A DNA stretch of 64,000 nucleotides from Peptococcaceae bacterium (GTDB lineage: Bacteria > Bacillota > Dehalobacteriia > UBA4068 > UBA4997). The stretch's first letter is position 1; each line of letters begins with the position of its first letter. The DNA is taken from NCBI GenBank assembly GCA_022797295.1, contig JAAWKH010000006.1:9990-73989 (forward strand), in the 5' to 3' direction. The position numbers were made by a program. Shown piece after piece: positions 9,001-12,000 of the stretch.

Positions 9001-12000
9001 AAATTGCATTTTTTTAGTGATTTATTGTGAATTTTCCCAGGCCCGGAGAAAAAACAGCCAAAAATTGGCAAAAGAAAAGCAGCTGTTAAGCTGCCGTCTG
9101 CGTATAAGCCTGCCAGGGTTGCGGAAAACCAAAACCTTATGGTGGGTAAATACGCTGATGACCGCAGCTGTATTCACTGGAAAATGACAAGCAGGTATCC
9201 TGACTTAAGTTCATCGCTTTTATGCGCCTTCTCGGAATACTCCAATGGCAACTGCATAATCGCTCACTTTTACAGTGACGGGTTCGTTTCGGATTTGCAC
9301 CGAATTCCCTGACTTGACATTTATAACATTTTTATGCTATTTATTGTAAGAAATTATAACACATAAAATTGCGATTGTCAATGCAGCTGAAGAAAATTAA
9401 TTGTACAAAATTGAAGAAAATTAATTGTACAAAATAAAAAAATAACGCGGCTCTTGCAAAAATGCTGTTGGTGGTTTAAACTATAGATGAAGCTAATTTT
9501 TTAAGATTTAAGGAATGGTGATTGCCTATGAAGCAGGAGGATATTCAAAAGTTTTTGGCGGCCAGCGGGCTGCCGGAGCATTTGGCTGTGCAGGCTGCCC
9601 AGGAATATGACGTGGTTGGCCTTAAACGCTATCAGGAAATTAAGGAGTTGTTTCTTTCCTTTGTACGGGTGATGGCCACGGCCATTGAGGAACGCTCGCT
9701 TTACAATGCCAATCATTCCCGGCGGATGGCTGGCTGTGGGGAGCGTTTTTTGGATTATCTGAACGCACAAGCGGCGGCTGCGGGTCTGCCGCTGCCCTTT
9801 GCTTCCGCCCATAAGCGAGAGCTGTTGGTTAGCATTTGGCTGCACGACGTGGGCAAAATTACCACGCCTTTGGAGGTTATGGACAAGGCAGAGCGGCTTT
9901 CCGAGGTGCAAAAGGCGGATATACATAACCGATTGAAAATTATTCGTCTGCAAAATCGGCTTGATTATCTGGAGGGCAAAATCAGCGCGGCCCAGCGGGA
10001 TGAAGTGGCGGCACAGGTTAGCCAGGCGGCCGCAGAGATTGACAAAATCAGCAAAAGCGGCTTTGTGACTGAGGAACAGCTGGCTTGGCTGGCGGCGGTG
10101 CAAAGCCGCACTTTCACCGATGAAGACGGACTGGTTTGCCCTTGGCTGGAGCCGGATGAGTATGCGATGCTTTGTGTTCGCAAAGGCACCCTTTCGGCTG
10201 CGGAGCGGCAGGTGATGGAGCACCACGTGGAAAGTACGGATAAGCTGCTGGCGCAGATTAAATTTTCCGCGGATTATGCCAATGTGCGCAGTTGGGCGGC
10301 GGCTCATCATGAGCTTTTGGACGGTAGCGGCTATCCTAAACATTTGACGGCGGCGGAAATTCCGCCGGAGGTGCGTATTATCACTATTTTGGATATTTTT
10401 GACGCTTTGATTGCACCTGACCGACCTTATAAACCGGCTAAGACGGTGGCGGAGGCTTTGCAGATTTTGCAAACAATGGCGGAGGACGAGGGCAAGCTGG
10501 ACGCGGAGCTGGTGCGCCAGTTTGCCGCCAGCCATTGTTGGGAGGACGGCGGCCAGGAAGCGACGATTGTTAGTTTGATAGAATGAAAGCGGCAGAGATT
10601 AACAGGAATTAAATATAGTAAAAGCGACGTTTTTCTGTTGAAAACGTCGCTTTTGTGTACTGTAATTTGATTTACAATAAAGTATACTTTATTGTAAATG
10701 GATTTTTTGCCAAAATTACAGTTAAAAGGCTTGTAATTTGTGTCAGTGTGTGATATATTTACTATATATAGGTATAGAAAAATTTACAAAAATGTATACT
10801 TTATTGTAAATTTTTCAGCCGCAAAAGGGAGGTGAGGCTGGCGCCTGGATGTGCTTGCGTTGCTTTAACAGGGTGTGGCTCGGCACCGCATTCGGCATAA
10901 GCAGGGCAAGGCTGAGCAGAGGAATGGAGTTCTGCTGACAAAGAACTATGTTGTTAATGAAAAAATTTGGCAAAGCCAGGGAAACTTGGCGACGCAAAGC
11001 TGAGGGGGCTAAGTCCGGCAATGCCGGATAGGCCAGCCCGGTTGCTGAACTAAAGGGCAAAACCAGCGAAAGCTGGTGACGCAAAGCCAAAGGGGCTAAA
11101 TTTCGCTGAATGGATTCCACGGAACAAGCCAGCCGGTTGCTGATTCATATCAGCAAACCCAGTGAAAACTGGGGACGCAAAGCTAAGGGGGCTAAGTCCA
11201 GAAGGCTGGATAAGCCAGCCCGGCCGCCGGATACTTTGCATCCGAAATATTTTAAGCAAAGAAAGGACGGATTTCTATGATAATGTTGAAGGACACAACT
11301 GCACACAGAAATACAGCTTCTCTTGCTCGGAAAGGGGAATGAAAAATGCTAAAAAAACGTTTGATTGCTTGGTTGTTGATGTTTGCGCTATGTTTTTACA
11401 GTATGCCGGTTTATGCTTTTGCTCAAGAAGCTTCGGATAATGTTGGCGATGACACTTCAATAAGCGAAAACGTTGACGCGACGCCATCTGATACGGAGGC
11501 GTCTGATTCTGAAACATCGGGCGCTGAAGCGTCGGATGATGTGACAGATGAAAGCGACAATGCCGAAACTGGCGCTCCTGACAGTGAAGATTCTGACACT
11601 GACGAGGGCGCAACAGAGGGAACTGATGACAATGACCAGACTGCTCCAGACGAGGGCAATGCTGGTGAAGATGAAAGTGTTGGTGTAACGCCTGACGAGG
11701 GCGAAAACACTGATGAGGTAATTGGTGACGAAAATAATAATAGTGAGCCTGCGGAACCGGCCGACCCGGAGCAATCAGCAGGCCCGGAAACACTTGAGCC
11801 GACAGAACCGGAACAGCCTGCGGAACCGACCGAACCGGCGGACCCGACTGAGCCTGAACAGCCTGCCGAGCCGACAGAGCCGGAAATGCCGGAAACTCCT
11901 GCGGAGCCTGAGCAGCCGACTGAGCCAGTGACGCCGGAGGAACCGACGGAGCCGGAACAGCCCACACAGCCTGCGGAACCGCAAGAACCTGTGGTGACCC

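Follow-up and report, generated by a model that had tools for sequence, protein, structure and literature searches.

Three abutting c-di-GMP-I aptamers and one candidate translational platform in the leader of a surface-protein gene

We analysed a window of 64,000 nucleotides, the whole stretch of DNA under study, from a Peptococcaceae bacterium that is represented by metagenome assemblies alone. A putative c-di-GMP phosphodiesterase gene and the gene of a large surface protein flank an intergenic region with the following features:

9522-10586, + strand, HD-GYP-type gene, putative c-di-GMP phosphodiesterase (Pfam HD_5 PF13487, E 3.1e-31)
10620-10654, terminator-like palindromic hairpin with a 14-bp stem and A and T runs, closing the HD-GYP gene
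10670-10811, invertible segment of 142 bp, between two 30-bp palindromic sites
10670-10699 and 10782-10811, the inversion sites, ATTTACAAWAAW-GTATAC-TTTATTGTAAAT
10731-10759, + strand, promoter-like site TTGTAA-17-(TG)aTATATT inside the invertible segment, directed toward the array (consensus scan alone)
10959-11049, + strand, c-di-GMP-I aptamer 1 (RF01051, 69.7 bits, E 1.4e-11); ligand-contact positions by alignment G10969 (position 20), A10996 (A47) and C11045 (C92)
11050-11144, + strand, c-di-GMP-I aptamer 2, with an extended P3 tip (RF01051, 64.5 bits); ligand-contact positions by alignment G11056 (20), A11083 (47) and C11140 (92)
11145-11231, + strand, c-di-GMP-I aptamer 3 (RF01051, 63.6 bits); ligand-contact positions by alignment A11152 (20), A11179 (47) and C11227 (92)
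11277-11342, + strand, putative leader ORF of 21 codons, with the Shine-Dalgarno sequence (SD) and AUG of the expression platform
11346-15221, + strand, secreted surface protein of 1291 aa

The 1291-aa ORF follows the array, as the first-pass annotation had described for a large LPXTG-type surface-protein gene, and its product, a "hypothetical protein" in the source records, is by its sequence probably a sortase-type surface protein. It runs from a signal peptide through an acidic Pro-rich and a Cys-rich part to two DUF7601/DUF5979 stalk domains and an anchor region, and ends in VPLTG...VPKTG, a hydrophobic stretch and RKRD; the candidate sortase-anchor features read MLKKRLIAWLLMFALCFYSMPVYAFA and ...VPLTG...VPKTGDNLILWFFAAVASAIGALGLGRKRD. 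The doubled-motif LPXTG anchor model NF033073, at 42.4 bits, falls short of its cut-off of 48. The Pfam search returned DUF7601 and DUF5979 alone and no collagen-binding (Cna-type) domain; residues ~250-960 match no family.

The upstream gene, whose translation contains the motifs HDVGK and HHELLDGSGYP, is a separate transcription unit directly before the leader region; the idea that such arrays regularly travel with it was rejected, as it is not a conserved neighbour in related loci. The 142-bp segment that follows inverts in nature. Four assemblies of the locus (L001, L245, L247 and L191) carry it in the orientation of the window and two (L002 and L246) carry its reverse complement, 100% identical and between identical flanks, and the first base of several contigs falls precisely at the GTATAC centre of the right inversion site. 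Most likely the segment carries the promoter, with transcription starting inside it; the leader counted from this putative start is ~580 nt long. Between the upstream terminator and the array, the scan gave no other + strand promoter candidate except one inside the right palindrome. Inverted repeats like those here also stand before related arrays. Domain scans of 20 large ORFs at 28.8-63.1 kb and of the called genes at ~1.3-25 kb gave no recombinase.

This layout is reminiscent of Clostridioides difficile flgB and cmrRST, where a c-di-GMP riboswitch and a short RecV-invertible element between inverted repeats share one leader and the recombinase is likewise not encoded beside the switch (PMC5386303, PMC8844915). 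Unlike in flgB and cmrRST, the invertible segment here lies upstream of the array, appears to bear the promoter and has a surface protein as its target, and its sites are perfect or near-perfect 30-bp palindromes with a GTATAC centre. Control of surface proteins in these uncultured Clostridia may thus join stochastic phase variation with a second messenger, as in C. difficile.

Rfam cmscan at the gathering threshold (35 bits for RF01051, the c-di-GMP-I family) gave three full-length matches on the + strand, each covering model positions 1-87 and each above that score. The first-pass annotation had claimed three tandem c-di-GMP-I aptamers at 10965-11240 and had proposed a covariance-model search and a covariation check; the matches, of 63.6-69.7 bits, span 10959-11231, within a few bases of its coordinates, and the alignment of the copies bears the claim out. 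Standard pairs fill 96.9% of the cells in the three-copy alignment, against 17-44% when the partners are slid, and 4 helix pairs, in the GAAA-capped hairpin and the distal P3, are altered on both sides (compensatory changes). The copies form three direct repeats (10970-11199, start-to-start 87 and 96 nt) that share GCAAA, the GAAA-capped hairpin, GACGCAAAGC and GGGGCUAA, and all contain the GNRA-tetraloop P2 and the receptor-like CUAAG...AUAGG in P3 that are the structural criteria of RF01051. Two details of the earlier description need amending: the GNRA-capped hairpin is present, under the usual name P2 and not P1, and of the core motifs said to recur in every copy GCAAA does so in all three, while the base 5' of GC is an A (11152) in copy 3. 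The contact nucleotides (Vc2 numbering 20/47/92) are G/A/C in aptamers 1 and 2 and A/A/C in aptamer 3. No other significant Rfam family appeared in 10550-11400, and no further structured RNA in the leader at 10550-10958 at E up to 5. We conclude from scores and alignment that the three elements are c-di-GMP-I aptamers with a conserved RNA structure; as judged from the sequence, the riboswitch array is real, and it arranges a familiar type of control in a way that has been little described.

The aptamers abut. Match ends meet at 11049/11050 and 11144/11145 with 0 nt between them, and the structured cores are ~10 nt apart. Tandem aptamers with a gap of <20 nt, too short for a platform, have been classed as adjacent (PMC12452182); the gaps here are below this limit, and one platform follows the last aptamer. 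A scan of the window sequence found no terminator-like site and no SD between the aptamers, and the hairpin at the junction of aptamers 2 and 3 is followed by AACCC, with no U run. The conserved platform occurs 3' of the last aptamer alone. Its parts, and the aptamer strand with the matching hexamer, are:

11177-11182, + strand, aptamer 3 core GCAAAG
11226-11267, + strand, single expression platform, delimited by conservation across loci
11228-32 with 11240-44, + strand, predicted S1 helix, CGGAU with AUCCG
11234-39, + strand, CUUUGC hexamer
11245-55, + strand, variable loop of the platform
11256-61, + strand, pre-SD GCAAAG
11260-67, + strand, SD AGAAAGGA

The sequence comparison strongly supports the view that the three aptamers share one translational expression platform. 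We regard it as very improbable that the locus is instead a series of three independent, complete riboswitches with a pseudo-cooperative output. Published surveys do class c-di-GMP-I tandems in this way (PMC9481103; PMC12452182), and the sole characterised triple works so: in Bacillus thuringiensis CT-43, each of Bc3-5 is described as a complete riboswitch that has its own terminator and turns transcription ON (Zhou et al., 2016; PMC4759541). The abutting aptamers, the short linkers free of terminator-like sites and SDs, the AACCC after the junction hairpin and the lone platform of the last aptamer all speak against such a series.

Bc3-5 had been cited by the first-pass annotation as a precedent, which stands in that the triple exists and fails in that its members are complete riboswitches, whereas here there is one expression platform. 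Nor does that triple control a collagen-adhesin gene, as had been said; it precedes cspABCDE, which encode cell-surface proteins, four of them with a cell-wall anchor, whereas Cap, the collagen adhesion protein, is controlled by a lone riboswitch, Bc2. The two systems share three class I aptamers in one 5' UTR upstream of surface-protein genes (cell-wall-anchored in Bc3-5), and in both the tandem arrangement may make the response steeper; they differ in that our aptamers abut, lack an internal terminator and have a single SD-proximal platform after the last. The glycine and guanine/PRPP tandem aptamers (Sherlock et al., 2022; PMC9481103) also place adjacent homologous aptamers before one platform, and as in such tandem-aptamer, single-platform riboswitches we expect the occupancy of one aptamer to influence the next. 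Here, however, the aptamer class is another, the units are three and not two, and the proposed coupling would run through competing secondary-structure hairpins and not through tertiary docking.

The platform follows the consensus CCGGA-NN-CUUUGC-AUCCG-N(5-17)-GCAAAG-AAAGGA(SD)-AUG, 3' of the last aptamer, and is nearly invariant in 10 named Clostridia genomes and over 92 unique loci in all (Clostridia genomes and metagenomes), with an unconserved loop of 5-17 nt. CUUUGC matches two GCAAAG hexamers without a mismatch, one in the aptamer core and one before the SD, and with the latter it can form a second helix, S2. The fifth pair of S1 is C-G or U-G in loci L059 and L065, and locus L214 has GCAAGG before the SD, keeping a G-U pair; S1 and S2 are almost invariant and so offer essentially no covariation as proof, and the search pattern behind the metagenome sample already fixes the 5' arm of S2 and the greater part of S1. 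Loop lengths are 1-2 nt (L1), 0-1 nt (L2) and 5-17 nt (L3). S2 overlaps the extended SD by its first 2 nt alone, and the computed SD accessibility shifts little, from 0.73 to 0.55. The platform is not a terminator, because most loci are without a U tract there; a terminator matched after aptamer 3 (11228-11254) was rejected, having a stem of 4-5 bp and a U-rich stretch that is the unconserved loop and is missing in most loci. A canonical P1 for the last aptamer was also rejected (head/tail complementarity 2.86 against 2.97 in permuted pairs), and across related loci no conserved anti-SD was found in aptamer 3 or in the platform loop.

Related arrays in Clostridia differ in copy number: before the platform, untruncated arrays hold 1 aptamer (8 loci), 2 (34), 3 (33) or 5 (1). 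Among 81 unique metagenome loci, selected by the platform motif alone, 65 have an untruncated array, 57 of these with several aptamers and 24 with three. At least 19 back-to-back arrays with three or more aptamers occur among the 120 genome matches listed for an exact-word triple pattern, ~100 of the 120 being unrelated repeats. On both counts the arrangement, earlier supposed to be rare, is not very rare. Our own covariance model under default filters, and Rfam runs on many loci, lose middle aptamers; the array search was run with filters off. Start-to-start spacing in related arrays is mostly 68-116 nt. The genes downstream all encode large secreted surface proteins (SLH, thioester or DUF11 domains); homology among these proteins was considered and rejected, their likeness being confined to signal peptides and C-terminal parts and their domains being different. 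No riboswitch class occurs in tandem more often than c-di-GMP-I, for which one survey counted 347 doublets and 12 triplets, and its tandems are discussed as stacks of independent switches. The present locus and its ~90 relatives appear to follow a different design, in which 1-3 abutting aptamers precede one almost invariant translational platform and sequence features tie neighbouring aptamers to one another and to the ribosome-binding site.

A copy number of 1, 2, 3 or 5 before the same platform also fits a reading, unlikely in our judgement, in which the platform-proximal aptamer alone regulates and aptamers 1 and 2 are recent duplicates that are neutral, buffer the ligand or help folding. 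Over 47 nt, aptamer 1 shares 87% identity with aptamer 3, and no helix joins aptamers 1 and 2 in the window. Against it, all three copies keep a full-length, high-scoring structure with compensatory changes, multi-aptamer forms dominate the untruncated metagenome loci, and conservation exceeds chance for the junction hairpin as well as for the P1 that competes with it in middle aptamers. The hairpin in the window is:

11137-11156, + strand, junction hairpin UUGCUGAU-UCAU-AUCAGCAA, 8 bp, predicted dG -9.0 kcal/mol

In it, C92 and its neighbours at the 3' end of aptamer 2 pair with the head of aptamer 3, where A20, G21 and C22 take part, and it appears in the minimum-free-energy fold. Over 16 distinct junction types this register pairs 83% of cells, against 5-56% when slid, and pair 94:19' is A-U, G-U or G-C. 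Covariation at the junction is modest, since 11 of 500 shuffles score at least as high as the real alignment; the mean junction stem is 5.12 bp, against 4.61 +/- 0.09 with heads permuted, and 0 of 2000 permutations were as high. In middle aptamers, head/tail P1 complementarity (6.4 against 4.3; 1 of 1000 permutations as high) competes with the junction hairpin. Unconstrained folding from aptamer 2 to the start codon gave a minimum of -77.1 kcal/mol, with both the junction hairpin and a CUUUGC:core helix, against -66.2 kcal/mol for the native two-aptamer fold, folding being computed without pseudoknots or ligand energies. In the ligand-free ensemble of 71 loci, the two partners of CUUUGC are almost equally likely (core, p=0.37; pre-SD copy, p=0.36), and the hexamer so seems poised between them. 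Within the window, aptamers 1 and 2 have weak P1 helices, and the predicted folds hold no comparable hairpin or linking helix at the junction of these two aptamers, which counts against a relay that includes aptamer 1.

The complementarity of CUUUGC to the aptamer core and to the pre-SD copy suggests a relay of three elements. Without ligand, the tail of aptamer 2 (G91-C92-U-G-A-U) would pair with the head of aptamer 3 (A-U-C-A20-G21-C22), and CUUUGC, just 3' of aptamer 3, would pair with GCAAAG in the core of aptamer 3. Binding of c-di-GMP would hold this core, and likewise the aptamer 2 tail, inside their aptamers, and the freed CUUUGC would pair with the GCAAAG directly before the SD (S2); S2 and S1 (CGGAU/AUCCG) would then probably form an H-type pseudoknot, replacing the missing P1 helix. 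Because aptamer 3 would fold only once aptamer 2 holds its own tail, output would need more than one bound ligand, making the response steeper than that of a single aptamer. Steep or multi-threshold c-di-GMP control, as the first-pass annotation proposed, can reasonably be inferred.

As to the sign of the switch, we favour OFF, at slightly better than even, because the succession of aptamer strand, anti-sequence and SD-proximal copy is the logic of OFF switches. Translational OFF switches of the thiM type employ an anti-anti-SD in the aptamer, an anti-SD and the SD. The GCAAAG core, its complement CUUUGC and the SD-proximal copy resemble this set; unlike in thiM, the "anti-SD" here covers only the first two nt of the extended SD, and the S1 pseudoknot may be needed. 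The same device may instead be an ON switch, a reading that we place somewhat short of even, with high c-di-GMP turning the surface protein on. Ligand on aptamer 3 would then stabilise S1 as a surrogate P1 and trap CUUUGC in its 7-nt loop, leaving the pre-SD GCAAAG and the SD free, and pairing of CUUUGC with the pre-SD copy would dampen initiation in the ligand-free RNA. c-di-GMP usually favours attachment, as an ON switch would have it. S1 directly adjoins C92, the normal place of P1, S2 is already populated (p=0.36) in the ligand-free ensemble, and in B. thuringiensis the class I riboswitches of cap (Bc2) and of the cell-surface protein genes (Bc3-5) work as ON switches. An ON switch, however, leaves the exact copying of the aptamer core by the pre-SD hexamer without a reason; the lengths of L1, L2 and L3 suit the simultaneous presence of S1 and S2 in a classical H-type pseudoknot; and the C. 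difficile class I riboswitches tested were all OFF, one of them before a putative adhesin (PMC6200980).

Position 20 varies with place in the array, being A in 28 of the 33 last aptamers of triples and G in 56 of the 61 first aptamers of multi-aptamer arrays. With an A at this first-ligand-base contact, aptamer 3 is like GEMM-Ib and bispecific A20 aptamers (Vc2 G20A, Cbe 1-2; PMC6140456); unlike GEMM-Ib, it closes a c-di-GMP-I array within a leader of Clostridia type and has no link to exoelectrogenesis genes. Since A20 is the signature of c-AMP-GMP (GEMM-Ib) aptamers (PMC6140456) and is so strongly position-specific, a two-ligand logic could be read here, with aptamers 1 and 2 (G20) sensing c-di-GMP and aptamer 3 (A20) sensing 3',3'-cGAMP. 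We find this quite unlikely: both ligands are bound by Vc2 G20A and also by a natural A20 aptamer, Cbe 1-2 from Clostridium beijerinckii, the latter preferring c-di-GMP (30 nM against 463 nM; PMC6140456), so A20 alone is not selective; no cGAMP synthase was seen within the window; and affinity tuning is simpler, G20A weakening c-di-GMP binding from pM to ~50 nM.

We think it probable that the locus is a composite control region, in which a promoter in the invertible segment, three aptamers and one platform work as a relay of mutually exclusive helices. If the relay is true, a second riboswitch class would join glycine in having a natural cooperative device of several aptamers, and the mix of G20 and A20 could set several thresholds. 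A tentative extension, which we hold to be rather doubtful, is that Clostridia surface-protein genes share a module of a phase-variable promoter, a domino chain of aptamers and a core-mimicking pseudoknot platform. Each aptamer would fold only after its upstream neighbour binds ligand, coupled through competing hairpins, with a high-affinity G20 unit first and lower-affinity or bispecific A20 units last. Such a module would be a cooperative domino riboswitch in a class hitherto treated as independent units.

The start codon of the platform opens the 21-codon ORF, and any effect on the surface protein would thus pass via this leader ORF, which is in frame with the main ORF and has its UGA stop 3 nt ahead of the main start codon. 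A fold that hides the main SD and so couples the two ORFs in translation was considered and rejected, the fold being like that of shuffles (z = +0.59). Loci L181 and L010 have short leader ORFs at the same place.

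The first-pass annotation had proposed three tandem c-di-GMP-I (GEMM) elements in the leader of the surface-protein gene, and the RF01051 covariance model bears this out, with three full-model matches against a gathering score of 35 bits:

10959-11049, + strand: aptamer 1, RF01051 (c-di-GMP-I), entire model, 69.7 bits
11050-11144, + strand: aptamer 2, RF01051, entire model, 64.5 bits
11145-11231, + strand: aptamer 3, RF01051, entire model, 63.6 bits

A repeat finder spaced the three copies by 87 and 96 nt, and GCAAA, a GAAA-capped hairpin, GACGCAAAGC and GGGGCUAA are common to all three. 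Compensatory pairs had also been claimed between copies, and a structural alignment of the three recovers them: 96.9% of cells hold standard pairs, versus 17-44% with slid partners, and four pairs are changed on both sides. The entire leader folds better than its shuffles (z = -4.6), and a permissive Rfam search of 10550-11400 yielded no further credible RNA family. The leader of the surface-protein gene is thus a true triple array of c-di-GMP-I aptamers, which as such is of a known kind.

The Rfam matches abut, with a gap of ~10 nt between structured cores, and neither a terminator-like site nor a Shine-Dalgarno sequence (SD) lies between the window's aptamers; the array is a set of directly adjoining aptamers and not a series of complete riboswitches. 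In contrast, the Bacillus thuringiensis triple Bc3-5, upstream of cspABCDE, is described as three riboswitches that are each complete and have a terminator of their own (PMC4759541). Because the five products of that operon are cell-surface proteins, four with a cell-wall anchor, and the collagen adhesion protein Cap is controlled by the single ON riboswitch Bc2, the triple is not the collagen-adhesin precedent it had been taken for. In two surveys c-di-GMP tandems are classed as complete, independent units, with 347 doublets and 12 triplets counted in one of them (PMC9481103, PMC12452182). The architecture seen here is a variant not described in those surveys, combining abutting aptamers, one conserved core-mimicking translational platform, a position-specific A20 and an upstream invertible candidate promoter.

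Nor is the triple arrangement as rare as had been supposed. A scan of genomes, one for each species, for three occurrences of GACGCAAA at aptamer spacing gave at least 120 matches; ~100 of the 120 listed are unrelated repeats, and at least 19 among those listed are genuine back-to-back arrays of at least three class I aptamers each, confirmed with a custom covariance model (filters off) and Rfam. Their hosts are Lachnospiraceae, Oscillospiraceae, Acutalibacter, other Clostridia/Bacillota, Chloroflexota and one deltaproteobacterium. Since the Chloroflexota arrays have one strong terminator after the third aptamer, and the deltaproteobacterial array a tail that pairs with the SD, the principle of several aptamers serving one platform recurs in nature. 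In four Chloroflexota/Anaerolineales loci (L008, L047, L078, L100) three abutting class I aptamers precede a terminator hairpin, CAGGGAUGAC...GUCAUCCCUG UUU. Acutalibacter caecimuris (L050) carries a triple array (2049-2341, - strand), whose middle aptamer matches the variant family RF03167 (c-di-GMP-I-GGC, 60.6 bits), and a divergent double array (2821-3024, + strand) ~480 nt away.

In the window and ten Clostridia genomes GCCGCCGGA closes the last aptamer; after it come NN-CUUUGC-AUCCG and a variable loop, then GCAAAG-AAAGGA and the start codon. In the window this platform comprises:

11228-11232 with 11240-11244, + strand: helix S1, CGGAU with AUCCG
11234-11239, + strand: CUUUGC
11245-11255, + strand: platform loop
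11256-11261, + strand: pre-SD GCAAAG
11260-11267, + strand: SD, AGAAAGGA

The SD is complementary to the Firmicute 16S rRNA 3' end. With a metagenome scan for the platform motif added, and after removal of duplicates and chance coding matches, the matches listed comprise 92 unique platform-bearing loci from Clostridia genomes and metagenomes, with an unconserved loop of 5-17 nt and AAAGGA in 70 of the 92. Most loci lack a U tract, so the platform is not a terminator. Across 81 metagenome loci selected on the platform motif only, the untruncated arrays among the matches listed have one aptamer (8 loci), two (33) or three (24). Loop lengths of 1-2, 0-1 and 5-17 nt fit an H-type pseudoknot of S1 and S2 (CUUUGC:GCAAAG). 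Independent variants keep the pairing, in S1 as CGGAC/GUCCG (locus L059) and as a U-G pair (L065), and in S2 as GCAAGG, giving a G-U pair (L214); the arms are otherwise invariant, so covariation cannot prove these helices.

CUUUGC is perfectly complementary not only to the pre-SD hexamer but also to GCAAAG, the invariant core of the aptamer itself, making the pre-SD hexamer a copy of the core. In aptamer 3 the core occupies 11177-11182, or G45-G50 in the numbering of the Vibrio reference aptamer Vc2, and contains the intercalating A47. From aptamer 2 to the start codon, the unconstrained minimum-free-energy fold (-77.1 kcal/mol) includes the CUUUGC:core helix, versus -66.2 kcal/mol with both native aptamers forced. 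In the window ensemble the pairing probability of CUUUGC is 0.39 for the core and 0.15 for the pre-SD copy; means over 71 loci are 0.37 and 0.36. Such a dual pairing constraint would explain why the hexamers are frozen across families.

Neighbouring aptamers may be coupled through a hairpin at the junction of aptamers 2 and 3, present in minimum-free-energy folds of the window RNA:

11137-11144 with 11149-11156, + strand: predicted junction hairpin, tail UUGCUGAU with head AUCAGCAA, 8 bp, -9.0 kcal/mol

Its tail arm includes C92 (11140) and its head arm A20-G21-C22; window junction 1|2 has no hairpin like it. Relatives form the hairpin in the same register with altered sequences, most commonly GCUAAU/AUUAGC, and also GCUGAA/UUCAGC and GCUGA/UCAGC. 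The mean junction stem is 5.12, versus 4.61 +/- 0.09 with permuted heads (0 of 2000 permutations as high). Among 16 distinct arm pairs 83% of cells are paired in register, versus 5-56% when slid, and one pair appears as A-U, G-U and G-C; covariation is modest, the observed score being reached by 11 of 500 shuffles. Middle aptamers also show complementarity between head and tail (P1), 6.4 versus 4.3 permuted (1 of 1000 permutations as high), with compensatory change such as AAUCAUAA/UUAUGAUU versus AAUUAUAA/UUAUAAUU, and by sequence this P1 would compete with the junction hairpin for the same tail. Last aptamers have no P1 (2.86 versus 2.97 permuted), and S1 may replace it.

The model with the best support is a relay. 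In the ligand-free state, junction hairpin and anti-core helix (CUUUGC:core) would form and leave the SD region open; with ligand, aptamer tail and core would be locked and CUUUGC would shift, with S1, to the pre-SD copy. That structure would adjoin the SD, implying OFF logic, towards which we lean slightly. Class I riboswitches of Clostridioides difficile, including one before a putative adhesin, are uniformly OFF (PMC6200980). An ON switch, to which we give a little under an even chance, would agree with the B. thuringiensis precedents, and S2 overlaps the SD by only 2 nt, with computed SD accessibility dropping only from 0.73 to 0.55. The platform's SD and AUG open a short leader ORF rather than that of the surface protein:

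11277-11342, + strand: leader ORF, 21 codons

It shares the reading frame of the main ORF, its UGA stop lying 3 nt before the main AUG, and two related loci (L181, L010) have short leader ORFs (34 and 22 codons) in the same place; the structure predicted near the main SD does not reach significance.

Aptamer 3 has A11152 at the position of Vc2 G20. Among the matches listed, G20 is found in 56 of 61 first aptamers of multi-aptamer arrays and 7/8 single-aptamer versions, and A20 in 28 of 33 last aptamers of triples. A20 is the signature of c-AMP-GMP aptamers; the Vc2 mutant G20A has affinities of 53 nM for c-di-GMP and 120 nM for cGAMP (wild-type c-di-GMP affinity is pM), and Cbe 1-2, a Clostridial A20 aptamer, favours c-di-GMP, 30 versus 463 nM (PMC6140456). 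Because G20A binds both ligands and Cbe 1-2 prefers c-di-GMP, A20 would reflect affinity tuning or bispecificity and is no proof of a second ligand. The four Chloroflexota loci show the opposite of Clostridia, with A20 first and G20 last.

Upstream of the array lies an invertible element of the phase-variation type, with a candidate promoter facing the array:

10670-10811: invertible segment, 142 bp, bounded by two 30-bp palindromes

It is exactly reverse-complemented between identical flanks in two other assemblies of the locus (L002, L246) that encode the identical protein, and has the window orientation in four assemblies; several contigs start exactly at the right site's central GTATAC. 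By consensus match, the promoter-like TTGTAA-17-TGaTATATT inside it is the only good candidate facing the array. The palindromes have no further copies in the window, and no recombinase domain was found in 20 large ORFs (28.8-63.1 kb) or the called genes (~1.3-25 kb). Precedents for pairing a c-di-GMP riboswitch with an invertible switch come from C. difficile, at flgB and cmrRST (PMC5386303, PMC8844915). Similar inverted-repeat pairs (core AAAGT(R)(Y)ACTTT, 120-200 bp apart) lie upstream of other multi-aptamer arrays:

L087, 3488-3653: inverted-repeat pair
L061, 694-895: inverted-repeat pair
L132, 5074-5262: inverted-repeat pair

From these, the switch-plus-array combination may be common. 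A GC-rich spacer of ~140 nt (10817-10958, + strand) separates segment and aptamer 1, with no Rfam match and no similarity beyond the same species.

The genes on either side of the leader are:

9522-10586, + strand: HD-GYP gene, putative c-di-GMP phosphodiesterase, HDVGK and HHELLDGSGYP motifs
11346-15221, + strand: surface-protein ORF, 1291 aa

The protein combines a signal peptide with an acidic Pro-rich and a Cys-rich region, a pair of DUF7601/DUF5979 stalk-type domains and a C-terminal VPLTG...VPKTG, hydrophobic stretch and RKRD; against the doubled-motif LPXTG anchor model it reaches 42.4 bits, slightly below the cut-off of 48. Of the giant LPXTG-type adhesin first proposed, these features appear to justify the label of sortase-type surface protein; a domain search found no collagen-binding domain, so that of collagen adhesin is unjustified. 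The products of downstream genes at related loci are all large and secreted, alike in their signal peptides and varied in their domains (SLH, thioester, DUF11, Ig-like). The HD-GYP gene, closed by a terminator-like hairpin, lies directly upstream of the array-controlled gene on the same strand and is not conserved as a neighbour of related arrays. Antisense to aptamers 1-2, a 101-aa ORF (10815-11120, - strand), called in a JGI record (L003/L249, 22-327), matches no family and is probably a spurious call. Elsewhere, a cobalamin riboswitch (RF00174, 9173-9332, - strand, 94.5 bits) precedes cbiM-cbiN-cbiQ and an ABC ATPase gene, a TPP riboswitch (RF00059, 16822-16932, + strand, 62.3 bits) precedes thiS-thiF-thiG-thiH-thiE, and four tRNA genes cluster at 36272-36747 (- strand).
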